Assembly (NCBI GenBank): GCA_016933175.1
Contig: JAFGBK010000107.1
Coordinates: forward strand, 958 to 64,957
DNA: 64,000 nt
Direction: 5' to 3'
Origin: Candidatus Krumholzibacteriota bacterium
GTDB taxonomy: Bacteria; Krumholzibacteriota; Krumholzibacteriia; JACNKJ01
Shown here: positions 44,397-56,101 of the stretch, in pieces
Numbering within the stretch: the first letter of the stretch is position 1
How the letters are laid out: every line of letters begins with the position of its first letter
The notes under the pieces: generated by a model
What the model saw: only the letters and a program-made list of their open reading frames with translations
What the model was told of the DNA's origin: nothing
Databases searched by the model: none
Program-made: the position numbers and the translations under genes

Positions 44397-47300
44397 CTAT
44401 TTCAGCATGACCATCTTCCGCGAGATCGCGTGCTCGCCCATGGTCACCCGCGCCAGGTAGACGCCGCTGGCGACGGGGCGGCCCGTCTCGTCGCGCCCGT
44501 CCCAGACGAAGATCTGCGCAGTGTCCGGCGGCAGCTCGCCCAGGAAGAGGGTGCGCACGAGGCGCCCTCGCACGTCGTGCACCCGCAGGGCGACGGGCAG
44601 CGGGTCGCCGCCGGCCGGCGTCGCGAAGCGGATGCGCGTGCTGGGATTGAAGGGATTGGGGAAGTTGGGCCAGAGCCGCCCGGCGCCGGGTGCGCCCGCG
44701 ACGGGCACGGCCGTGATCTGCGTCTCGCGCGTGAAGACGCCGGTCCGCGCGGCGTTGGCCCGGAACATCTTCCACTGGGCCATGCCGTTGCGGTAGCGGT
44801 CCGCCAGGTCCCAGACGTAGACGAAGGCGTCCCAGCCCAGCAGGCCGATGTCGATGGTGTAGTCGCCGTCCAGGTCGCAGATGGTCGGCGTGGCGCGCAC
44901 CTCGGCCTGGGTGAGGATGGGGAAGCCCGGCAGCACCTGGCCCTGGATGTCCCAGGCGTAGATGTAGCCCCGCTCGGTGCCCAGCATGATGTCCAGGGAC
45001 TGGTCGTCGTTGAGGTCCACCACCACCGGGCTCGACTCGCTGCTGTCGTCCAGGTGGACAGGCCAGCCGGGCAGCGGATTGCCCTGGTTGTCCAGCACGG
45101 TCACGTAGGAGTTCGTATAGGCCTGCACGCCCGCGGCGACGATCTCCATCTGCCCGTCGTCCTCGAAGTCGCACAGAGCGGGGCTGGGCGCCAGGCCCGC
45201 AGCGTTGCTGCGCAGGAAGACGGGGAAGCCGGGCACCGGCGTGGCGTCGTTGCGCAGGGCGTACAGGGAGTCGTTCTCGCAGAGCACGACGATCTCGTTG
45301 ACGCCGTCGTCGTCCAGGTCGCCCAGCGAGGGGCTGGCGTAGGTGTCATTGCTCAGCTGCAGAGGCCAGCCGGCCAGCGGCGTGCCGTCGTGGTTCCACG
45401 CGAAGATCTTGTGGGGAGCGGAGCTGCCCACGACGATCTCCAGCTCGGGGTCCTCGTCGAGCTGGCCCAGGGCCGGGCTGGAGCGCACCCAGGAGCCCAG
45501 GCCGTCGAAGAAGACGCCGTCGGTGGACGCGTTGCCGTCGCCGTCCACGACCTCCGTGCCGTCGTGGTTCCAGGCGTAGAGCTTGCCGTTCAGGCTCGCG
45601 GCGAAGATCTCCACGCAGCCGTCGTTGTCCACGTCGGCGGCCGCCGGCGTGGCCCAGCACCAGTAGGGCAGGCTCTTGGGCCAGCCGGGCAGCATCTGGC
45701 CGTTCGCGTCCAGGACGCAGAGGCGTACCGGCGCCTTGGAGGTGGTGATGATCTCCAGGCCGGGAGTCAGGGTGTCCACCTGGGCCAGGGCGATGCTGGC
45801 GACGATGTCCGTCACCTCGCCCGTCAGGACGCCATAGGTGCCGCTGTTGCCGTCGCCGTCGAGCACCTCCACGCCGTCGTGGTGCCAGGCGTAGAGGAAG
45901 TAGCTGGCGGCCACGACCTCCTCGTCGCCGTCACCGTCGATGTCGCCCACGGCCAGGCTGCTGGCGCCGCCGAGGTCCGTGGCCAGGGGCCAGCCGTCCA
46001 GCATGGCGGGATTGGTGGATACCTGGAACTCCTCGCTCGGCGCGCTGCGGAAGCCCGTGGAATCCAAGCTCTCGACCACGAAGTAGTAGGTCGTGCTCTC
46101 CTGGAGCTCCTCGTTGCGGAAGTAGGCGTAGGACGTGGGCTCGGTGGAGGCCAGCGTGTAGGGCCCGCCCGCCTGGAGACTCCGGAAGACCAGGTAGCCG
46201 TCCGGCGCGCCCGCGGGGATCTCCCAGGTCATGTCGATGACCGTGCTGGCGAAGCCCGGATCCAGGACGATGTCCTCCGGCGGCTGCGGTCGGCGCACGA
46301 TCAGCGTGTCGAAGACGCTCTCGCCCAGGGGGCCCGTCAGCCCGAGGAGAAAGCGGTTGGGAATCCCGACATCGGTCTCGAGGACATCGATGCCGTCCGA
46401 GGCGCCGCGCTCGAGCAAGCCGAGGATGGGCAGGCCCACCTCGCCGCCGAGGACCTGGGCATCCGGATCCAGGGCCGTCAGATCGGCCGTCCAGCCCACC
46501 AGGGGCGTGCTGCCGTAGTTCTTCCACTCCGGCAGGATGGTGTAGGTCTCGCCCGCGTCGGGCTCGCCGTCACCGTCGCCGGTCGCGTCGTCGATGGTGT
46601 AGCTGAACAGCCGCGGCACCGGCGCGTGCAGGTCGACATCGAGGCGGTCGGCCTGGCTGCCGCCGGTGTAGCCGAGCGCGAAGTCCAGGAGGGCGCTCTC
46701 GCCGTCCACCAGGGCGAAGGGCGCCTTCAGCAGGAAGACGCCGCCGAGCTCGAGGCTGTCGCCCGGCGCCAGGGTCTCGCCGGTGACGACCTGGTTCTCC
46801 ACCAGATACAGCTCGCCGCCGGGCAGGGACAGGTCGATGATCAGATCGGCCGCCTCCGCGTCGCCGCGGTTGTGCACCGTGAAGGCCAGGCGCACGGTCT
46901 CGCCCGCGTCGAGCAGGGAGTCGCTGTTGCCCGCCACCAGGGTCTGCTGCCCGGCGCCGTTCCAGCTCGGATCGTCCACGACCCGCAGGGCGTCCACCGC
47001 GAGGCGCGGCCCGACGCCGGCCGCCACCGCCACCTCACCGTGGAAGGGCAGGCGGTTGTTGCCCGTCACGGTGACCGTGATGTCGCCGAGGGACTCGGCG
47101 CGGAAGGGCAGGGCGACGTAGCCGGCGGCGTCCGTGACGCCCTGGGAGCGGTCCTCGCCGGCCTTGGCGGCCACGGCCAGGGCGCCGGGCACCGCCCTGC
47201 CCAGACTGCTCACCACGAGGTGGAGCGTGTCGTCGTCCAGGGTGTAGGGCTGCGTCAGCGCCGCCGTCAGCGGCGTGAGCGTATCGAGCCAGATGTCGAT

Positions 47301-49124
47301 GCTGGGATCGCCGATGAGCACGTAGCAGAGCTGCGTCCAGCGGTGGCTGCCCTCGACGGAGGCGAGGACGGACCACTTGTTGTGGCTGAAGGTGAAGCAG
47401 GCGCCCACCGTCGAGGTGTCGGCGAAGAGCTCGCTGAAGTAGGCGTTCTGGTAGTAGACGCTCGTGTTGGGGAAGGCCTCGCGGGCCGTCCCGATGCTCG
47501 TGATGCCGCCGCCCTCGGGCGCCAGGAGGAAGGCCTCGCCGAGGCAGTTGTAGTCGATCGCGCAGGACGTGCAGTTGAGCGAGTAGAGGCTGAAGAGGTG
47601 GTCCAGCCCGTTGGTCATGGCCATCGCCTGGGAGGAGACGATGTTCCCCGAACCGCAGGACATGGTGTAGCGGTACCCGTGCCCGACGTGGAGCAGCAGG
47701 TGGGCCCGCGTCTCCATGTCCGCGTAGACGTCCTCGACGATCTCCGGCAGGGTCCCGGGGTAGAGCCAGTAGGTCTCGTACCACCGCAGGGCTTCGATGT
47801 GCCCCGGCAGGTAGTTGTCGTAGACGATCTCGCAGTAGTCGGCGCCGTTGCGCGTGATGTCGTCGTCGGGCATGCCGATGTGATAGTCCGGCGGGAAGAG
47901 CACCTCGCCCATGAAGGCCATCTGCCGCACGTAGCTCGTGTCCGGCGCCTCGGTGTAGGCGATGATCTTGTCGACCAGCAGCTGCGCGTCGCCGTCGCTG
48001 CGGATCGGCAGGCGCCCGAGATGGACGTCGGCGATGAAGTCCAGCTCGTCGCCGGGCGTGCCGGCGAAGGTGGCCTCGCCGAAGTACTGGTCGCCGTCGG
48101 CGTTCCAGTCGCCGTCGAGCTGGGCGTAATAGAGATCGCTGGGGATCAGCTCGGGCGGATCCTCGAAGTAGGAGAGCACGTAGCGCACGGGGATGATGCC
48201 CGCGTCGCCGGCCAGCAGCACGTACTGGATCCCCCACTTGGCCAGGGCGTCCTGCAGAAAGGTGCGGATGGTCTCCTGCAGGTCGGCGCCCTGCGGGTAA
48301 CGGGCGCGGATCCAGTCCAGGTCGCGCACCACCGTCGTCACGCCGCGCTGCGTCTTGTGCTCGGCCAGGGTCTCGAGGATCGCGGCGTGCTCGGGCGCGC
48401 AGATGATGACCATGTCCACGCCGCTGCCCTCCAGGCTGGGCTCGCCGCGCGGTGCGAACAGGCCCCGGTCGTCGCTGCGCGGCGCGGAGGCCGGCGCGCA
48501 GGCGGCGAGGGCGCCGGGGTTGGCCACGCGCCGGAGCGCGCGCGCCGCCACGGCCGCCCGGACCGCATCGCGCTGGCGCAAGGGCTGCACGATGCCGGGA
48601 TCCGGCTCGGTCTCCACCGCCACCCGGCAGGAGCGCAGGCGGATCAGGCGGGCCCCGTCCGCGTCCTCCTCGTAGAGGAAGGGCGCCAGGACGATCTCGG
48701 CCGTGGTCAGCCCCCGCTCGGCGAAGGTGGCCGTGTGGAACAGGTGCGCCGCTGGAAAGCACCCGGCGGCCGCGTCGCCGCAGGCGAAGGGGCGGCCCGT
48801 GTTGTCGGCCGCGCCGGCGAAGGCGGGCAGCGGCCCGCTCAGGCGCAGCGTGTCGGAGACGACCGCCTCGAGCCATGCCGCGGCGATCCGCTCGCCGGCG
48901 GGAACGAGCAGGCTGACCGATCGCAGGGGCAGCTCGGGGCGGCTGGTGGTCTCGGTCCGCCAGGGCTCGCCGGCGACCAGGCGCGCCAGGGCGGCGGCGT
49001 CGTCGACAGCGCGCAGCGCCGCGTCAGCCTGCCAGGTCGTGTTGACCGCGGCGACGGCGGGGATGGATGCGAGAAGGAGAGAAACGGCGAGCAGGGGGAT
49101 GAGCAGGCGAAGGTGCGAGCGCAT
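44397..49124 (-). CDS. Gingipain-like C25 cysteine peptidase with Ig/FN3, FG-GAP repeats and FlgD-Ig CTD (paralog 2, 1575 aa)
   Basis: SDLYYAQLDG, LGRLP, HVGHG and SLNC motifs; FG-GAP repeats; NFPNPFNP...WDGRDE...ASGVY...RKMVMLK. Confidence 0.88.
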   Translation of the reverse strand: MRSHLRLLIPLLAVSLLLASIPAVAAVNTTWQADAALRAVDDAAALARLVAGEPWRTETTSRPELPLRSVSLLVPAGERIAAAWLEAVVSDTLRLSGPLPAFAGAADNTGRPFACGDAAAGCFPAAHLFHTATFAERGLTTAEIVLAPFLYEEDADGARLIRLRSCRVAVETEPDPGIVQPLRQRDAVRAAVAARALRRVANPGALAACAPASAPRSDDRGLFAPRGEPSLEGSGVDMVIICAPEHAAILETLAEHKTQRGVTTVVRDLDWIRARYPQGADLQETIRTFLQDALAKWGIQYVLLAGDAGIIPVRYVLSYFEDPPELIPSDLYYAQLDGDWNADGDQYFGEATFAGTPGDELDFIADVHLGRLPIRSDGDAQLLVDKIIAYTEAPDTSYVRQMAFMGEVLFPPDYHIGMPDDDITRNGADYCEIVYDNYLPGHIEALRWYETYWLYPGTLPEIVEDVYADMETRAHLLLHVGHGYRYTMSCGSGNIVSSQAMAMTNGLDHLFSLYSLNCTSCAIDYNCLGEAFLLAPEGGGITSIGTAREAFPNTSVYYQNAYFSELFADTSTVGACFTFSHNKWSVLASVEGSHRWTQLCYVLIGDPSIDIWLDTLTPLTAALTQPYTLDDDTLHLVVSSLGRAVPGALAVAAKAGEDRSQGVTDAAGYVALPFRAESLGDITVTVTGNNRLPFHGEVAVAAGVGPRLAVDALRVVDDPSWNGAGQQTLVAGNSDSLLDAGETVRLAFTVHNRGDAEAADLIIDLSLPGGELYLVENQVVTGETLAPGDSLELGGVFLLKAPFALVDGESALLDFALGYTGGSQADRLDVDLHAPVPRLFSYTIDDATGDGDGEPDAGETYTILPEWKNYGSTPLVGWTADLTALDPDAQVLGGEVGLPILGLLERGASDGIDVLETDVGIPNRFLLGLTGPLGESVFDTLIVRRPQPPEDIVLDPGFASTVIDMTWEIPAGAPDGYLVFRSLQAGGPYTLASTEPTSYAYFRNEELQESTTYYFVVESLDSTGFRSAPSEEFQVSTNPAMLDGWPLATDLGGASSLAVGDIDGDGDEEVVAASYFLYAWHHDGVEVLDGDGNSGTYGVLTGEVTDIVASIALAQVDTLTPGLEIITTSKAPVRLCVLDANGQMLPGWPKSLPYWCWATPAAADVDNDGCVEIFAASLNGKLYAWNHDGTEVVDGDGNASTDGVFFDGLGSWVRSSPALGQLDEDPELEIVVGSSAPHKIFAWNHDGTPLAGWPLQLSNDTYASPSLGDLDDDGVNEIVVLCENDSLYALRNDATPVPGFPVFLRSNAAGLAPSPALCDFEDDGQMEIVAAGVQAYTNSYVTVLDNQGNPLPGWPVHLDDSSESSPVVVDLNDDQSLDIMLGTERGYIYAWDIQGQVLPGFPILTQAEVRATPTICDLDGDYTIDIGLLGWDAFVYVWDLADRYRNGMAQWKMFRANAARTGVFTRETQITAVPVAGAPGAGRLWPNFPNPFNPSTRIRFATPAGGDPLPVALRVHDVRGRLVRTLFLGELPPDTAQIFVWDGRDETGRPVASGVYLARVTMGEHAISRKMVMLK

Positions 49125-49195
49125 GCATGCCTCCTGAGAGAGGACGTCCTCCCCCGAACCGACCGGGAGAGGCGTTTACCGCGGAAACGGCCCCA

Positions 49196-49224
49196 ATTAT
49201 ACCATGCCCCGCGGGGCCGGGCAA
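49196..49224 (-). promoter_or_regulatory. Near-consensus extended -10 promoter of C25 paralog 2
   Basis: TTGCCC (49224-49219), 17-nt spacer, TGg-TATAAT (49201-49196). Confidence 0.7.
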
Positions 49225-49307
49225 TCGGACCCGGAGACGGCGCGGCCGCCCCCCCTGCGCGGGAGGGCGGCCGGCTTCGTGACGTGTCCGATCGCGGCGC
49301 GTCGGGT

Positions 49308-50657
49308 CTAGAAATCCGTGCCGCTCGTGAAGCGAAAATCCCGCACGCGCAGAGGCGGCAGCACGGCGTCGCCCAGCGCCTCGGGTTCGCCCAGTGCCTC
49401 CACCTGGTTGAAGAGGTGCAGCAGGCTCTGGTTGAAGCGGAAGTTCTTCACCGGCCCCACGACCTGGCCGTTCTCGACGAGGAAGGTGCCGTCGCGTGTC
49501 ATGCCGGTGACCACCATCTGCATGGGATCCACCACGTTCAGGTACCAGAGCCGCGTGACCAGGAGACCGCGCTCGAGGCCGCCCACGAGGTCCGCCAGAT
49601 CGCCTTCGCCTCCGTCAAGGACGGGGAAGCGCGGGAAGGCGCCCCAGCTGTTGGGCTGGGGCAGGCCGTGCCCCGTGGGCGCCTGGCCGGTCAGCCGCGC
49701 GCTCAGGCGGTCGTGGAGGAAGGAGGTGAGGACGCCGTCCGCCACCAGGGGCAGGGCCGCGGTGTCCACGCCCTCGCCGTCGAAGGTGGTGCCGAAGAGG
49801 TCCGGATGCGCCGGGTCCTCCCGCAGCGTGACGTTCTCGCCGAAGACCCGCTGCCCCAGCTTGTCGAACAGCGGGCTGCGCTTCTCGGCCACGGCGAGAC
49901 CGTTGAAGCCCAAGTAGTGCAGGAAGAAGAGCAGCTCGCGCACGGCCTCGGGCTCCAGCACCACCGTGTAGGGTTTGGGGTCGATCTGGCGCGGCTCGCG
50001 GCTCTCCAGAGCCCGCCGGCAGGCGTCCTCGGCGACCTTCACGGGATCGATGTCGCCCGCCCGCCGCGCGAGGGCGCGGCTGCGGCCTGCGCCCTCGCCC
50101 TTCTGCGCGCTGACCTCGAAGACGGCCCGCGTCTTCTTCGCGAAGCGGTACAGGCCGCGGGTGTTGGCCACCGCGAAGGGCTCGATCTCGCCGTAGTCGG
50201 CGATGGTGCCCTCGCTCGTCAGGGCGATGCCCCCTGCCTCGAGGCCCTCGCGGGCGGCCGTCTCGACGGCGGCCGCCACCCAGGCGGCGCGCTCGGCCGG
50301 GCTGACGGCCGCCGTCGCCTCGTCCCAGGCGGCGTCCTCGCGCCGCTCCCCGCCGTCGGCCATGTCCAGCACGCGGTCGCTCTCGGCCTGGATGGCCGCC
50401 AGCGCCTCGGCCTCGCGCACGCAGCGCTCCAGGCTCCCGGGCGAGAAGTCGTTGGTGGAGGCCAGGCCCTGGCGGCGGCCCTGGCGCACGCGCACGCGGA
50501 GCTGGTAGCGCTCCTCGGCGACGTTCTGGGTGATGCGGTTCTCGCCGAAGCGCGTCAGGTTCTCGTGGCCGCCGCCGAGCACCACCTCGGTCTCGTCGGC
50601 GTTGCTGGCCGCGAAGACGCGGTCGCGGATGATGCCGAACTCCTTCTCGCCGATCAT
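49308..50657 (-). CDS. pmbA: TldE/PmbA family protein
   Basis: LTRFGENRITQNV, VVLEPEAV and TGMTRDGTFLVENG...KNFRFN motifs; ATGA overlap with tldD. Confidence 0.9.
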   Translation of the reverse strand: MIGEKEFGIIRDRVFAASNADETEVVLGGGHENLTRFGENRITQNVAEERYQLRVRVRQGRRQGLASTNDFSPGSLERCVREAEALAAIQAESDRVLDMADGGERREDAAWDEATAAVSPAERAAWVAAAVETAAREGLEAGGIALTSEGTIADYGEIEPFAVANTRGLYRFAKKTRAVFEVSAQKGEGAGRSRALARRAGDIDPVKVAEDACRRALESREPRQIDPKPYTVVLEPEAVRELLFFLHYLGFNGLAVAEKRSPLFDKLGQRVFGENVTLREDPAHPDLFGTTFDGEGVDTAALPLVADGVLTSFLHDRLSARLTGQAPTGHGLPQPNSWGAFPRFPVLDGGEGDLADLVGGLERGLLVTRLWYLNVVDPMQMVVTGMTRDGTFLVENGQVVGPVKNFRFNQSLLHLFNQVEALGEPEALGDAVLPPLRVRDFRFTSGTDF

Positions 50658-52099
50658 TGGCTCACCCCCACTCGGATCTTGCGGAAGCGCGCGGGCGCCG
50701 AGCCGTGCGTCATGCGGGCGATCTGCCCCGGCTCCCCCTTGCCGCAGTTCATGACCCCGAAGGGCCGCCACCATGTCTCGCTGCAGACGGCATCGCAGGC
50801 GCCCCAGAAATCCGGCGTCCGGCTCTGATAGTTGCAGTCGCGCAGCATGCGCGTCTTCTTGCCGCCCTTGATCTCCCAGCCGATCTCCGTCGAGAACTGG
50901 AAGTTGAGCCGCATCTGGTCGATGCTCCAGCTGCGGTTCGTCTCCATCCAGATGCCGTCCTCGGTGTCGGCGATGAGGTCGTCCAGGTCCCAGTCGCCCG
51001 GCGCCAAGCCGAGGTTGGGCATGCGGATGATGGGGATGCGGTTCCAGCCCTCGGCGCGGTTGCAGCCGCGGCTGCGCGGGTTCCCCTCGACGTGGGCCAG
51101 CTCGCGGCTGGTCAGGTAGCCGGAGAAGATACCGTCCTTGACCACGTGCCACTTCTGGGCGGCGACGCCCTCGTCGTCCCAGCCGCGGGAGGCCAGGCCC
51201 CGCGGCAGCGTGTTGTCCGCCACGATGTTCACCTGGTCGGAGCCGTAGCGGAAGCCGCCCAGCTTCTCGGTGGTCAGGAAGCTGCGCCCGGCGAAGTTGG
51301 CCTCCATGCCCAGGACGCGATCTAGCTCGCTGGGGTGGCCGCAGGACTCGTGCACCTGCAGGGCGAGCTGCGACCAGTCGAGGATGATGTCCCTCTCCCC
51401 CGCGGGGCAGGGATCGGCGCTCAGCAGGGCCACGGCCTCGCCGGCGATGCGTTCGGCGTTCGGCTCGAGCCCGTACTCGTCCAGGACCTCGTAGCCGGCG
51501 CTCAGGTGCATGCCGCCGGCCGAGTCGGGAAAGCTGCGGCGCTGGATGGAGCCGCCGTCGGTGGCCGTGACGGCGTAGCCGCCGCCGCTGGCCATGAGGT
51601 CCTGCTCCAGAACCGCCCCGTCCGTGGAGACGAAGAGAATCTTCTGGCTGTCGAAGTACATCTGGGCCTGGGCCACCTTGATGCGCTCGTCGACGTGCAG
51701 CGACTCCTCCAGCTTGTAGAGCCGGTCGAGCTTCGTCTCGAGCGGCACGGTGAAGGGATCCACCTCGCGCGGCGTGGTGTAGCCGGCCTTCTCGGCGGGC
51801 TCGACCGCGAGCTGCACGGGCTCCCTCATCACGCGCGCGCTGGCCTCGGCGATCTCGACGGCGCGGGCGGCCGCGGCGTTCAGGCTCCCGGCGTCCAGGC
51901 GGTCCGTGCTGGCGAAGCCCCAGGCGCCGCCCTTGAGCACGCGAACGCCGACGCCCTGGGTCTCCCGGCTCTCGGCGACGGCCAGGGCGCCGTTCTTGAC
52001 CATCAGCTCCTCGGCGCGGGCCTGGACCCAGCGGGCGTCCGCGTACTCGGCGCCGCGGCTGCGGGCGGTGTCCACCGCCTCCAGAACACGATTCTTCAT
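50654..52099 (-). CDS. tldD: TldD family metalloprotease
   Basis: VHESCGHPSELDR (HExxxH), DDEGV, RMPNLGL, SWSIDQ.RLNFQF and CGKGEPGQ motifs. Confidence 0.93.
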   Translation of the reverse strand: MKNRVLEAVDTARSRGAEYADARWVQARAEELMVKNGALAVAESRETQGVGVRVLKGGAWGFASTDRLDAGSLNAAAARAVEIAEASARVMREPVQLAVEPAEKAGYTTPREVDPFTVPLETKLDRLYKLEESLHVDERIKVAQAQMYFDSQKILFVSTDGAVLEQDLMASGGGYAVTATDGGSIQRRSFPDSAGGMHLSAGYEVLDEYGLEPNAERIAGEAVALLSADPCPAGERDIILDWSQLALQVHESCGHPSELDRVLGMEANFAGRSFLTTEKLGGFRYGSDQVNIVADNTLPRGLASRGWDDEGVAAQKWHVVKDGIFSGYLTSRELAHVEGNPRSRGCNRAEGWNRIPIIRMPNLGLAPGDWDLDDLIADTEDGIWMETNRSWSIDQMRLNFQFSTEIGWEIKGGKKTRMLRDCNYQSRTPDFWGACDAVCSETWWRPFGVMNCGKGEPGQIARMTHGSAPARFRKIRVGVSQ

Positions 52100-52202
52100 G
52101 CTTTCCCCCTTCGGGCCCGCGGGCCCGGCTTGCCATGTCCTTCGCGCCCGGGGGCGCGGCGCCAGTTTGCTTCATCGGCCGGCGAATGTCCAGGGAAGGG
52201 GT

Positions 52203-53405
52203 CTAGAAGCGCCGCCGCGGCCGCTCCACCGGACGGCGGAGCTCGCGCAGGCGACGGCGGCCGCGCACGAGCAGGAACGCGGAGACCGCGGCCAGGACGG
52301 CGGCGGCCAGGAGGCCGCCGCGGTTGGCGCTCAGGAAGCCGCCGGGCAGCCAGAGGCGCAGCTCCTCGTCGTTGCGCCGGTAGCGGCCGCCGTCCATCCA
52401 GAGGGACAGGTGCTCGGTCTCGATGCGGTACTCGCCGCGCAGCCGGTACTCGCCCAGGCTGGCGGCGAGGACCTCGCCGCCGTGGTGCACGCGCGGCTCC
52501 CCTTCCGGCTCGATGGCCTGGAACAGGTTCTGGGCGGGATGATGCAGCATCGAGATGCCGCTGGCCGCCAGGCGCCGGCCGCCGTCCCACTCCACGCGGA
52601 GGCCCGCCGGATACAGCCAGTGCTCCTCGCCCAGCCGCTCGGCAGGCGCGTCCGCCTCGAGGGTGCGGATGCGGTGCCAGCCGTACTTGACCGAGACGAG
52701 CAGGCCGGGCCGCGCCAGCCAGGCCTCCACGCGGCCCAGGGCCTGGCGGCGGGCGGCCGTCACGGCCCGCTCGGCGGCGAAGTAGAGGCCGGCGAAGTCG
52801 ACGCCCTCCTTGAGCTCCTCCAGGGACCAGCCGCCCGCGCCTCCCACCGCCTCGGCCAGCCGCGCGGCGGGATCCCCGGCGGCCCCGCAGCCGGGCCGGC
52901 CGAGCTCGGCCAGGAGCATTCCCTCCAGGATGCCCTCCAGCAGGAGCTGGACCGGGCCCAGGCGCCCCGCCCGCAGGCTGTCGGTGCAGGCGGGCAGGTC
53001 GAGTGCCGCCAGGCCCAGGCGCTCGTGGAGGCAGACGCCGCGCTCGCGGCGCTCCCGGTCCCAGGCCGGCACGGCCTCGTCCTCCTCGAGGCGCAGGCGC
53101 CGGGCCGCGGCCCAGCGCCGCGGCGCCTCGCCTGCCGCCTCGCCGCCTGCCGCGGCTTCGGCCCAGCGCGCCAGGTACTCCCACTCGAGGAAGCGCAGGG
53201 CCAGGTTCCGCGCCGAGGCGGGCGGCGCCACGGCCTCGCCGGGAGCGGCCCAGTCGACCAGGATGTCGCCGAGTCCGCCGGGAGGCGGCGATGCGGCCGG
53301 CGGGGAGTCCGGCGGCGCGCTCCGGCCGGCGCAGGGCGCCGCCAGGACCAGGGCGGCCAGGGCCAGGTAGGCCGGGACGGCCGCGGCGCGGCGCGGCGTC
53401 AGCAC
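52203..53405 (-). CDS. Hypothetical exported protein with C-terminal TM anchor and Arg-rich tail
   Basis: Signal peptide; ends NRGG-LLAAAVLAAVSAFLLV-RGRRRLRELRR. Confidence 0.6.
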   Translation of the reverse strand: MLTPRRAAAVPAYLALAALVLAAPCAGRSAPPDSPPAASPPPGGLGDILVDWAAPGEAVAPPASARNLALRFLEWEYLARWAEAAAGGEAAGEAPRRWAAARRLRLEEDEAVPAWDRERRERGVCLHERLGLAALDLPACTDSLRAGRLGPVQLLLEGILEGMLLAELGRPGCGAAGDPAARLAEAVGGAGGWSLEELKEGVDFAGLYFAAERAVTAARRQALGRVEAWLARPGLLVSVKYGWHRIRTLEADAPAERLGEEHWLYPAGLRVEWDGGRRLAASGISMLHHPAQNLFQAIEPEGEPRVHHGGEVLAASLGEYRLRGEYRIETEHLSLWMDGGRYRRNDEELRLWLPGGFLSANRGGLLAAAVLAAVSAFLLVRGRRRLRELRRPVERPRRRF

Positions 53406-53719
53406 GCCTCCCGCTCCCGGCCGGAGACGATCTGCCAGTACCAGTCGAGGACGCGGGCGAGCGCTTCCAGGGCCTCCTCCGGCTCGCGGATCCGCGCCTC
53501 CCAGGCGGGCCGCCCGCCGGTCTGCAGGCGGAAGAGGTCCCGGTGCAGGGAGACGACGGCGAGGACCCGCTCGCCGAGCATGTACACGCGCCGCAGAGGA
53601 TCGCCCTCGATGCGGACGGCGGGATCGATCTGGCGGAGCTGGATGTCCAGGCGCCTGAGCAGCGCCGCCACCACCGGCTCCATCTCGGGCGCCGGCCCCG
53701 ATGCGGGAATCGGACTCAT
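53399..53719 (-). CDS. Small hypothetical protein (106 aa)
   Basis: ATG at 53719 overlaps the upstream stop (ATGA); composition looks protein-like. Confidence 0.6.
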   Translation of the reverse strand: MSPIPASGPAPEMEPVVAALLRRLDIQLRQIDPAVRIEGDPLRRVYMLGERVLAVVSLHRDLFRLQTGGRPAWEARIREPEEALEALARVLDWYWQIVSGREREAC

Positions 53720-54441
53720 GGGGGCGGGCTCGCGGCGCGAGCCGCCAGCGCGCCCTGGGGCACGCGGCGCAGGGCCTCCAGGTAGCCCCGGAAGAGGCGG
53801 CGGGTCGCCGCGTCGCAGCCGGGGGCGGGCCAGTGGGGCCGCGCGGGATCCACGAGCTGGCCGCGGGTCAGGCGCCCCCAGATGCCCATGATCCGCCGTT
53901 GGGGCGGCGGCGGCCGGTCCAGGCCCACCAGGAAGAGGGGATCGTCGGCGAGCGCGCGAGGATCGCGGCAGGCCTCTTCGCGGACGGGATCCTGGAGATA
54001 GAGCCACAGGCCGCGGCGCCCCGCCGGTGGCGCCGCCTCGATGCGCCAGCGCAGTCCCTGGCGCGGGCTCCACGCGGCCGTGCGGCTGCGTGGCAGGAGC
54101 GTCAGGCCCGGACGGGGTTCGAGGCAGGCGGGCGCCTCGCCGCCATCCAGGACCACGCCGAGATCGCAGGGGCCGGCGCCCAGGAGGCGGGCGGCCAGGG
54201 GCAGGCACGCATCGGGCAGCACTGCCAGGACCGCCTCGCCCTCCTCGCTGGCGACCAGGGCCAGGTTGAGGGCCAGGGGCAGGATCCAGGGAGAGCCGGC
54301 CGTTCCGGAGACGAGCACCTCGTGGAAGGAGAGGGGCCTGGGGGCACGGTCGGGATCCACGGACAGGCGCGAGCCGCTCAGGAAGTGGTGCCGGATGCTG
54401 CGGATGTGGTTCCGGCGGCCGGGGCCCTGGACAACGGCCAT
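53716..54441 (-). CDS. Hypothetical protein with a degenerate MinD/ParA-like N-terminal segment
   Basis: VLVSGTAGSP.ILPLALNLALVASEEGEAVLAV resembles the strand-P-loop-helix of ParA/MinD without the Walker A lysines. Confidence 0.5.
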   Translation of the reverse strand: MAVVQGPGRRNHIRSIRHHFLSGSRLSVDPDRAPRPLSFHEVLVSGTAGSPWILPLALNLALVASEEGEAVLAVLPDACLPLAARLLGAGPCDLGVVLDGGEAPACLEPRPGLTLLPRSRTAAWSPRQGLRWRIEAAPPAGRRGLWLYLQDPVREEACRDPRALADDPLFLVGLDRPPPPQRRIMGIWGRLTRGQLVDPARPHWPAPGCDAATRRLFRGYLEALRRVPQGALAARAASPPP

Positions 54442-54450
54442 GACCGACTC

Positions 54451-55530
54451 CTAGCTGACGACGAGCAGGGAGTTCTCCAGCCCCATCTCGGTGACCACCG
54501 AGTCGTGCTGCTCGGGATCAGTGACCCAGCGGCCGTCGAGGATGTAGCGATACTCGTAGTTGCCGGACGGCAGGGCCAGGACCACCTCCCAGCGGCCCGG
54601 CTGGCCCGCCACGGGTTCCAGGGGGATGCCGCCGGGATTCCAGTTGTTGAAGCTGCCCGTCAGGTAGACCTCGCGCGCCTCGGAGGCCTCGACGCTGAAG
54701 CGGATGCCGCCCTCGCAGGGCTGCGGTCCGAAGAGCCGCTCCGCCACCTCCTCCGTGCGCTCGATGATCAGCTCGGCCAGGCGGCTCCACAGCTCCTCGG
54801 CCAGCTGCTCGAAGTCCAGCTTGACGAGCCCGGCCTTGGTCAGGCGCAGGACGGGCACGCCGGCCGCCGCAGCCATCTTCACGCGCACGCTGGCGCGGAT
54901 CTTGGTCTCCAGGAGGTGAATGCGGTCGTGGGCGGCGAGCTTCCGGTAGAGCTCGCGGCTGAAGAGGGTGCGCCGGCTGAACTGGTTGGCGGCCACGAAG
55001 CAGGGCGGGCGCCGGTCCATCTCCTCCTCGAGGACTTCCAGGGTCTCGAGGATCTTGCCCAGTCCGTGAAGCGTGAAGGTGGAGCTGTCGACGGGCACCA
55101 GCAGCGCGTCGGCGGCCACGAGGGCGTTGAAGGTGAGCAGGCCCACCGAGGGCGGCGTGTCCACGACGATCCAGTCGTAGGCCTCGCCGTGGCGCAGGAG
55201 GGCGGAGATGAGGCGGCTCTCCCGCCCGGGCTGGCGCGCCAGCTCCTGTTCGGCGGCCGAGAGGATGATGCCGCTGGGAACGAGGTCCAGGTTGCGCTCG
55301 ATGCGCACGGCGATGTCCGCGAAGGGCGCGGCGGGATCCTGAAGGAGATCGTAGGCGCCCAGGTCGCGGTCCTCGGCCGAAACGCCGAGCCCGAGGGACG
55401 CGTGGCCCTGCGGGTCGAGATCCACGAGCAGCACACGGAAGCCTTCCTTGGCCCAGGCCGCCGCGAGGTGGATCGCCAACGTGGTCTTGCCGCAGCCGCC
55501 CTTCTGGTTCACTACCGCCAGGACCTTCAT
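54451..55530 (-). CDS. ParA/Soj family ATPase fused to a C-terminal glycogen-binding CBM48 (AMPK-beta-like) domain
   Basis: NQKGGCGKTT, VDLDPQGHAS and DTPPSVG motifs; C-terminal VYLTGSFNNW...LPSGNYEYRYILDGRW.TDP...NSLL. Confidence 0.9.
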   Translation of the reverse strand: MKVLAVVNQKGGCGKTTLAIHLAAAWAKEGFRVLLVDLDPQGHASLGLGVSAEDRDLGAYDLLQDPAAPFADIAVRIERNLDLVPSGIILSAAEQELARQPGRESRLISALLRHGEAYDWIVVDTPPSVGLLTFNALVAADALLVPVDSSTFTLHGLGKILETLEVLEEEMDRRPPCFVAANQFSRRTLFSRELYRKLAAHDRIHLLETKIRASVRVKMAAAAGVPVLRLTKAGLVKLDFEQLAEELWSRLAELIIERTEEVAERLFGPQPCEGGIRFSVEASEAREVYLTGSFNNWNPGGIPLEPVAGQPGRWEVVLALPSGNYEYRYILDGRWVTDPEQHDSVVTEMGLENSLLVVS

Positions 55531-55666
55531 CTCCCACCTCCTGAACGGGTCCGCGCTAGCGCCCGGGGCATCGGCTGCGGCGACGCCGGGGCCGCGCCCC
55601 GCCAGCCGCATGGTCCCCCAGAGATCGGAAGAGCGTCAAGGATTATTCAGGTGGATTGGGCGTCGC

Positions 55667-56101
55667 TCATCCGGAACGGCGCACCATGAGCAGGGACACG
55701 GCCGCGCCGAGAATCGCGCCCATGAAGACCTCGCTCCAGGTGTGGCCCAGCAGCTCGCGCGTGCGCTCGCGCGGGAAGTGCCGGTGGTCGATGAGCTCGT
55801 CGATGATCTCGTTGAGCACGCGGGCCTGCTTGCCCACCTCCTGCCTGAGACCCGTCGCCTCGAGCACGAAGTAGAGGCCGAAGACGAAACAGATGGCGAA
55901 CAGCGGCGAGGCCAGCCCCTCGGCCCGGCAGGCTCCCACCGCCAGCGCGCTGACCGTGGCCGTGTGGCTGCTGGGCATGCCGCCCGTCTCGAAGAGGCGG
56001 TAGAGCTTGAGGCGCCGCTCGCGCAGGCTCTCGACCACCACCTTGTAGAGCTGCGCGGCCATGGCGCTGATCACGGCGGCCCAGAGGATGGGGTGGATCA
56101 T
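55667..56101 (-). CDS. Divergent PAP2 / DUF212 family membrane protein
   Basis: AQ..K, GGMPSSH(T)A.V, A.GLR..VG.QA..LN and LGHT..EV..GA.LG motifs. Confidence 0.92.
   Translation of the reverse strand: MIHPILWAAVISAMAAQLYKVVVESLRERRLKLYRLFETGGMPSSHTATVSALAVGACRAEGLASPLFAICFVFGLYFVLEATGLRQEVGKQARVLNEIIDELIDHRHFPRERTRELLGHTWSEVFMGAILGAAVSLLMVRRSG

Follow-up and report, generated by a model that had tools for sequence, protein, structure and literature searches.

The stretch of DNA examined here (the window) comprises 64,000 nt of a Candidatus Krumholzibacteriota genome (contig JAFGBK010000107.1, positions 958 to 64,957) and contains a gene for a ParA-type ATPase fused to a CBM48 sugar-binding module. 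The fusion gene is followed by a gene for a partner protein with the fold of MinD and FleN and by a gene for a small protein, and the three genes are, judging from their recurrence in related genomes, a conserved module. The reading favored here, to which we assign a probability of roughly 0.5, is that this uncharacterized module of the ParA/MinD family would tether or position glycogen on the nucleoid in an ATP-dependent manner. Carriers of the module belong to Krumholzibacteriota, Latescibacterota, uncultured Fibrobacteraceae and further uncultured lineages of the Fibrobacteres-Chlorobi-Bacteroidetes (FCB) group.

The locus consists of four co-oriented genes on the minus strand, with products of 359 (P0001, the fusion protein), 241 (P0002, the partner), 106 (P0003, the small protein) and 400 amino acids (P0004). 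P0001 (54451..55530, 359 codons plus stop) is identified by its open reading frame (ORF), the public gene call, Pfam and its relatives. It is separated from the P0002 gene by 9 nt, while P0002 and P0003 overlap by 4 nt and P0003 and P0004 by 7 nt. An earlier note on this DNA, made from the sequence alone, had described three hypothetical genes that follow the fusion with short gaps or overlaps, and an independent gene call on a public contig returned the identical four products and the identical junctions. The three genes downstream of ParA-CBM48 are real and translationally coupled. The start of P0001 is placed at the ATG at 55530 rather than at an in-frame ATG at 55611, which would give a longer ORF, because a Shine-Dalgarno sequence read from the DNA (AGGAGG, 55537..55542, minus strand) lies 7 nt before the former, because the independent call agrees and because P0001 homologues likewise begin with MKVLAV or MRVIAV.

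The N-terminal part of P0001 (amino acids 1-255; 54766..55530, minus strand) is a Soj-type ParA ATPase domain, as judged by its solved relatives and by motifs conserved at 95-100%. Pfam AAA_31 matches residues 1-172 (E 7.8e-46) and CbiA is matched too, both above their gathering thresholds, and the nearest solved structures are Myxococcus xanthus ParA (8RAY, E 4e-35) and Thermus thermophilus Soj (1WCV, E 1e-33). Conservation in P0001 was read from an alignment of 178 non-identical full-length relatives. The deviant Walker A motif NQKGGCGKTT (amino acids 8-17), including the signature lysine K10 and K15, is unchanged in 177 of these, and the cysteine at position 13 (KGGCGKT) is a signature of the ParA-CBM48 family. 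The Walker A' residues D37 and D39 (counterpart of position D60A in 8RAY and of D44 in T. thermophilus Soj) and D124 of Walker B are conserved at about 100%. R187 is retained in 95% of the relatives, R or K at position 216 in 99% and K218 in 97%. These three residues align at the 'DGRT' and 'NVRL' basic positions of T. thermophilus Soj and M. xanthus ParA, and we take them to be equivalents of R189 and R218 of Bacillus subtilis Soj. The alignment thus agrees with the earlier proposal of basic residues at the DNA-contact positions of Soj, with 95-99% retention across the family. Soj binds DNA non-specifically through surface arginines (PMC9178275). Together these features support P0001 as a catalytically competent ParA of the Soj type that probably binds DNA. 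A signal peptide and a transmembrane segment were looked for in P0001 and neither was found; the protein is therefore cytoplasmic.

In M. xanthus ParA the pocket for the N-terminal helix of ParB is made up of six residues (PMC12462528). Mapped onto P0001 through the 8RAY alignment, in which all six reference letters of M. xanthus ParA agreed, the pocket corresponds to Q95, V129, L131, F134, V166 and M171, so that five of the six positions remain hydrophobic.

A short linker (amino acids 256-272; 54715..54765, minus strand) spans the approximately 17 residues between the last ParA helix and the sugar-binding module, and the conserved GP within it (G268, P269) is unchanged in all but one of the 178 relatives. 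The module itself is an AMPK-beta-type CBM48 (amino acids 273-359; 54454..54714, minus strand) recognized both by Pfam and by a family profile. Pfam AMPK1_CBM matches residues 284-358 (E 1.7e-13; 51.0 bits against a cut-off of 26.8) and CBM_48 matches residues 267-335 (37.6 bits against 22.4), which together with AAA_31 bear out the fusion of ParA to CBM48 that had been read from the sequence; the motifs quoted with that reading (KGGCGKTT, FSRRT, KIRASVR and GSFNNW) are all present. A profile built from the C-terminal 115 residues of 24 members has the AMPK beta1 and beta2 modules as its top solved match (E 3e-13), followed by a GH13 pullulanase, a neopullulanase, two glucan phosphatases (SEX4 and LSF1) and branching enzymes of the GlgB type. 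In the profile alignment W297 corresponds to W100 of AMPK beta, W335 to W133, F/M349 to L146 and N353 to N150, and R328 corresponds to K126, a conservative change. Both stacking tryptophans are invariant among the 178 relatives (100%), and R328 and N353 are retained in 96% and 99%. In AMPK beta1 the module loses its binding to glycogen when W100G or K126Q is introduced, and W133L weakens the binding (PMC6274970). Given that the sugar-contact residues are kept and that their counterparts matter in AMPK beta, the sugar-binding face is under selection, and the C-terminal module of P0001 is probably a binder of glucan, as predicted from these positions.

Relatives of the module are found in other settings as well. 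The AMPK-beta-like profile matched 17,773 clusters of a representative library, where the top matches carry 3-19 tandem copies and many are proteins of about 480 amino acids with four copies. Stand-alone homologues of 90-190 amino acids are present in metagenome-assembled genomes (MAGs) of Verrucomicrobiota, Syntrophorhabdus and Syntrophaceae (loci L071, L073, L074, L078, L079 and L081-L083), and in L071 the gene that follows encodes a homologue (E 5e-48) of the glucan phosphorylase of locus L065, which is described below.

Full ParA-CBM48 fusions are present in 72 species-representative genomes, whose named carriers are Krumholzibacteriota, Latescibacterota, UBP1, Chitinivibrionia and uncultured Fibrobacteraceae, and hundreds of 90%-identity clusters of the fusion occur in metagenomes. 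The comparison of neighborhoods covers 73 loci, taken from the 72 species genomes and from contigs fetched by protein identity; 69 of these have enough downstream DNA to be informative. The partner was detected by hidden Markov model (HMM) in 62 of the 69 and the small gene in 61, with both present in 60. Loci where all three genes occur together belong to Krumholzibacteriota, Latescibacterota and one Chitinivibrionia MAG, and five further loci have a divergent partner that bears the N-terminal peptide described below. In one Chitinivibrionia MAG (L056:220-1084) the ParA and CBM parts are encoded by two separate ORFs that overlap, which could reflect an assembly indel or a real frameshift.

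The partner P0002 (53716..54441, minus strand) represents the genes that follow the fusion in the 73 loci, which encode products of about 265 amino acids and start at a median of 4 nt past the fusion stop codon. An iterated HMM unites these genes as one family, with P0002 included at E 5e-14. No member of the family has a Pfam match, and P0002 is also without a match in NCBIfam. In a word-indexed database the family profile found 5 matches and one central member 48, all of them annotated 'hypothetical protein', without Pfam domains and confined to Krumholzibacteriota and Latescibacterota. Among solved structures the profile matches FleN (5J1J, E 6.8e-6) over the N-terminal half, where the GGKGGVGKT of FleN lines up with residues of the partner family that form no P-loop; a GK[ST] at the aligned Walker A position was found in none of 53 members. 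The AlphaFold2 (AF2) model of P0002 has a mean confidence (pLDDT) of 77 and a predicted template modeling (TM) score of 0.75, and its top Foldseek matches are BcsQ, MinD, FleN and FlhG, with a probability of 1.0 and TM scores of just 0.35-0.50. A profile and fold match to MinD/FleN without a P-loop identifies the partner as a MinD/FleN-fold pseudo-ATPase, and the loss of the Walker A loop in 53 of 53 partners makes ATP-driven dimerization of the partner unlikely. In one long-read MAG (L005:8368-9390) the partner gene runs across two frames, which again could reflect an assembly indel or a real frameshift.

The best-conserved feature of the partner is a basic/amphipathic peptide near its N terminus (amino acids 9-22 of P0002, RRNHIRSIRHHFLS; 54376..54417, minus strand), which follows the pattern (R/S)P(R/K)x(L/I)(R/K)D(I/V)(S/A)HL(F/Y)LS in 52 of 53 aligned members. 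Partners beyond the reach of the HMM (L069, L072, L076, L077 and L080) still open with a variant of it, such as RHHIGAVVGHFLA. The region has low pLDDT in the AF2 model and is therefore probably flexible. The core of the peptide, R-x-hydrophobic-x-x-hydrophobic-hydrophobic, is like the motif through which M. xanthus ParB binds ParA; there, R13, L15, L18 and I19 are required along with L11 (PMC12462528). By analogy with ParB, the peptide may dock in the pocket of ParA and fire the ATPase, making the partner, rather than the McdB-like activator proposed earlier, the candidate for this role. The partner also ends in a conserved hydrophobic and basic helix (RRxPPxxxFFxxLAxxLLQ followed by basic residues), which is well predicted in the model (pLDDT 86-88) and may merely pack on the core.

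The small protein P0003 (53399..53719, minus strand) belongs to a family that comes immediately after the partner in 61 of the 69 informative loci and whose HMM P0003 matches at E 2e-26. Its ATG overlaps the stop codon of the partner by 4 nt. In the confident AF2 model (pLDDT 87.8) five strands stand between a helix and a long helix, an alpha-beta5-alpha arrangement, and a Foldseek search with it returned nothing significant, the top match being YdhG/frataxin-like (E 0.16, TM score 0.57). A nuclease fold found no support for this third protein of the module, which is roughly 95 amino acids long. Neither P0003 nor P0004 has a match in Pfam or NCBIfam.

A genomic link to glycogen is found at one locus, L065, from the Latescibacterota genome CS4-C107 (WVZY01000017.1, 7254-16192). 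There the fusion heads a same-strand cluster of glycogen genes. After the fusion the cluster encodes a CBM48 protein that stands alone (125 amino acids), a pair of GT5 glycogen synthases, a branching enzyme of family GH57 (Glyco_hydro_57 plus BE_C) and a DUF3417-type glucan phosphorylase. The partner and the small gene were not detectable in L065, where a stretch of about 700 nt follows the fusion. A survey of neighborhoods for glycogen genes, which the earlier note had suggested, yielded this cluster while nearly all of the approximately 73 loci are without such genes.

The proposed mechanism starts from an ATP-bound dimer of ParA-CBM48 that would sit on the nucleoid and present two CBM48 modules. 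The two modules of each dimer would grip glycogen particles multivalently. The N-terminal peptide of the partner would then dock at the dimer interface and stimulate ATP hydrolysis, causing ParA to leave the DNA, and cycles of binding and release could tether glycogen granules along the nucleoid, spread them or share them out. We also propose, more tentatively and at somewhat less than even odds, that the module is the first dedicated machine for the positioning or inheritance of a polysaccharide storage granule. In it, a nucleoid-riding ParA would grip glycogen directly with its own CBM48, and a dead paralogue of the MinD fold would reset this ParA with a peptide that mimics ParB. Such a machine would invert the usual arrangement, where it is the activator that is bound to the cargo.

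Several points weigh against a role in glycogen positioning. Known ParA ratchets place the activator, not the ATPase, on the cargo. Here CBM48 belongs to the ATPase and not to the activator, so that a ratchet of the classic, cargo-stimulated kind would require the partner to be concentrated on glycogen. The AMPK-CBM-like domains are very common, so the ligand of any given copy is not guaranteed. Glycogen genes are nearby in just 1 of about 73 loci (L065), and the genes that do recur beside the module are envelope or proteolysis genes. A hint of glycogen metabolism in these bacteria comes from a paper that describes starch/glycogen hydrolases in one Krumholzibacteriota bin; literature searches on glycogen in Krumholzibacteriota and Latescibacteria gave no more than a passing mention. 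At the proposed docking site, the spacing of the partner peptide is one residue shorter than that of the ParB motif, and one of the six pocket positions of P0001 is a glutamine (Q95).

Some of these points are accommodated by a sensor of glycogen status, in which CBM48 reports glycogen load, as in AMPK, and modulates a ParA-type ATPase with another output. Outputs such as division-site choice, nucleoid organization or regulation of a partner protein can be envisaged, none of which involves movement of granules. Among solved structures the CBM is closest to the regulatory modules of AMPK beta, most loci are without glycogen genes nearby, and a sugar module on the ATPase itself fits sensing as well as carrying. 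Nevertheless, the conserved module encodes no effector domain or known target (an FtsZ regulator or a transcription factor, for example) and the context of L065 points at glycogen metabolism itself, which makes a sensor unlikely.

About as improbable is a C-terminal E-set domain that binds a protein or another glycan, with a cargo other than glycogen that is possibly held at the membrane through the C-terminal helix of the partner. That helix, conserved and hydrophobic/basic, could be a membrane-targeting helix like that of MinD, and in the clade of the window the module shows translational coupling to a membrane protein. The conserved neighbors are envelope-related, and CBM48/E-set domains are extremely widespread and diverse. 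However, retention of the AMPK beta sugar-contact positions at 96-100% would be unexpected for a purely protein-binding derivative, and one relative (L065) shows genomic linkage to glycogen enzymes.

A static scaffold, in which ParA-CBM48 and the pseudo-ATPase form a heterodimer-like complex that nucleates or organizes glycogen enzymes on the granule without transport over the nucleoid, is slightly less probable again. The partner keeps a ParA/MinD fold and could thus use the dimer face to join the ATPase, and the fusion in L065 lies beside genes for synthase, branching enzyme and phosphorylase. Strong conservation of the ATPase at its catalytic and DNA-contact positions argues instead for a working cycle of ATP and DNA binding, and the part of the partner that is best conserved is the flexible N-terminal peptide, not the dimer face.

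The absence of parB and parS nearby, as stated in the earlier note, was upheld by several searches. ParB-family Pfam domains were found on none of the genes called within 10 kb in a syntenic relative, and neither the ParB box-II motif (GERRxR, six frames), a second ParA or second deviant Walker A motif, nor a parS site (TGTTNCACGTGAAACA, up to 3 mismatches) was found in the 64-kb window. An ordinary chromosomal ParA that works with a ParB and parS located in another part of the genome, and for which the CBM is an accessory, is consistent with chromosomal Soj/ParA proteins as the best solved relatives and with searches that covered the window rather than the whole genome, but it is highly improbable given that neither parB nor parS lies within 64 kb, that a dedicated and tightly coupled non-ParB partner with an activating-type peptide is co-conserved, and that a Walker A signature of its own, KGGCGKT, marks the family. 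A reading of the locus as a defense system was rejected; PADLOC gave only a weak P-loop match on P0001 and none on P0004.

Tethering or positioning of glycogen would place the module among systems that have both similarities to it and differences from it. As in chromosomal ParABS, the ATPase of P0001 has the signature lysine, the motifs of Walker A' and of Walker B, the basic DNA-contact residues and a mostly hydrophobic pocket for the ParB helix, and the peptide at the partner's N terminus resembles ParB's motif for ParA binding. Unlike ParABS, the module is without a ParB (helix-turn-helix and CTPase domain) or parS in the window, its partner has a P-loop-less MinD/FleN fold and the ATPase itself bears CBM48. 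The partner resembles FleN, FlhG and MinD in the fold and profile of its N-terminal half. FlhG carries a regulatory peptide at its N terminus and a helix at its C terminus, and the partner has a candidate regulatory peptide and a helix at the corresponding ends. It differs from these proteins in that the Walker A loop is missing (53 of 53) and no flagellar or division genes are nearby. The C-terminal domain of P0001 has the AMPK beta CBM48 as its nearest solved relative and keeps the glycogen-contact residues, but it is fused to a bacterial ParA and not to a kinase scaffold, and K126 and L146 of AMPK beta are replaced by Arg and by Phe or Met. The McdA/McdB system is similar to the proposed activity in that a ParA-family protein spreads a large non-DNA cytoplasmic body over the nucleoid with a non-ParB partner that stimulates the ATPase (PMC9178275, PMC12139897). 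McdA is reported to lack the signature lysine (PMC9178275), whereas P0001 has it. In addition, the cargo-bound adaptor of that system is McdB, a protein that is not ParA-like, whereas in the present module the ATPase has the cargo module and the partner is of the MinD fold, and the cargo would be a polysaccharide in place of a protein shell.

The fourth gene of the locus encodes P0004 (52203..53405, minus strand), a protein predicted by segment analysis to have a signal peptide, a C-terminal transmembrane helix and an Arg-rich tail. P0004 would be exported and anchored in the membrane with the Arg-rich tail in the cytoplasm, and its gene is translationally coupled to the cytoplasmic module. 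Homologues of P0004 are found only in L002, L004 and L006, which belong to the high-G+C clade of the window itself; in L005 there is no P0004 and TldD follows directly after the small gene. In about 51 loci, among them most Krumholzibacteriota, a lipoprotein of 600 amino acids follows the module after a gap of about 100 nt (L014:2584-4428, for example). The lipoprotein has immunoglobulin-like repeats and a C-terminal matrixin-type HExxHxxGxxH motif, and P0004 holds its place in the clade of the window. Membership of P0004 in this lipoprotein/metalloprotease family was rejected, as there is no match between them. P0004 and the 600-amino-acid lipoprotein are treated as neighbors and not as core parts, and P0004 is a clade-specific add-on to which no relevance to the module is assigned. 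The operon of unknown genes described in the earlier note therefore holds for the partner and the small protein, which are conserved with the fusion, but not for P0004, which is clade-specific and exported.

Upstream of the fusion and 136 nt from it lies a gene for a DUF212 (divergent PAP2) membrane protein (55667..56101, minus strand), recognized by Pfam on the gene call of the public contig and on a relative. DUF212 is upstream in 58 loci and missing in L001, L055-L058, L062 and L065; several Latescibacterota loci without it retain the partner and the small gene, and it is probably a syntenic neighbor and not part of the module. Other recurrent neighbors are SBP_bac_5, NamZ, MurU-like, AmgK-like, ClpB, C25 peptidase and TldD/PmbA genes. 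The NamZ exo-muramidase, MurU-like nucleotidyltransferase and AmgK-like kinase of peptidoglycan recycling are upstream on the opposite strand in 23-28 loci each (for example, L024:1869-3041 and L060:1529-3564). The recurrence of DUF212, SBP_bac_5, NamZ/MurU/AmgK, ClpB and C25 looks like phylum-level synteny. Downstream of the module in the window, 103 nt from P0004, is a TldD/PmbA pair (about 49308-52099), and beyond it a gene for a 1575-amino-acid C25-peptidase protein with FG-GAP repeats and a FlgD-Ig-type C-terminal domain (44397-49124); both are on the minus strand (44397-52099 as a whole), and the arrangement is syntenic among close relatives.

The window has a G+C content of 72%. Scans of 51900-55900 for consensus promoters and terminators found none. 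The locus is present in sequencing runs from sediment and marsh metagenomes, and none of its sampled words was present in one metatranscriptome of the same study.

Glycogen is the main cytoplasmic polysaccharide, and ParA/MinD ATPases organize DNA, carboxysomes, chemoreceptor arrays, flagella and division sites. To our knowledge, the distribution of bacterial glycogen at division is essentially unaddressed. Full-text literature searches gave no description of a ParA linked to glycogen, in keeping with the statement in the earlier note that no functional characterization was known, and a 2024 review of the cargos of ParA/MinD proteins makes no mention of glycogen or storage granules (PMC11407121). 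With three genes, the candidate machine is of small size; it is conserved and offers obvious point mutants in K15 of Walker A, R187, W297/W335 and the N-terminal peptide of the partner, and it is therefore directly testable. The module would also be a natural example of a pseudo-ATPase paralogue that has been recruited to regulate its active relative. Some bacteria may rely on this unstudied set of genes to keep their granules of stored sugar in place or to distribute them.

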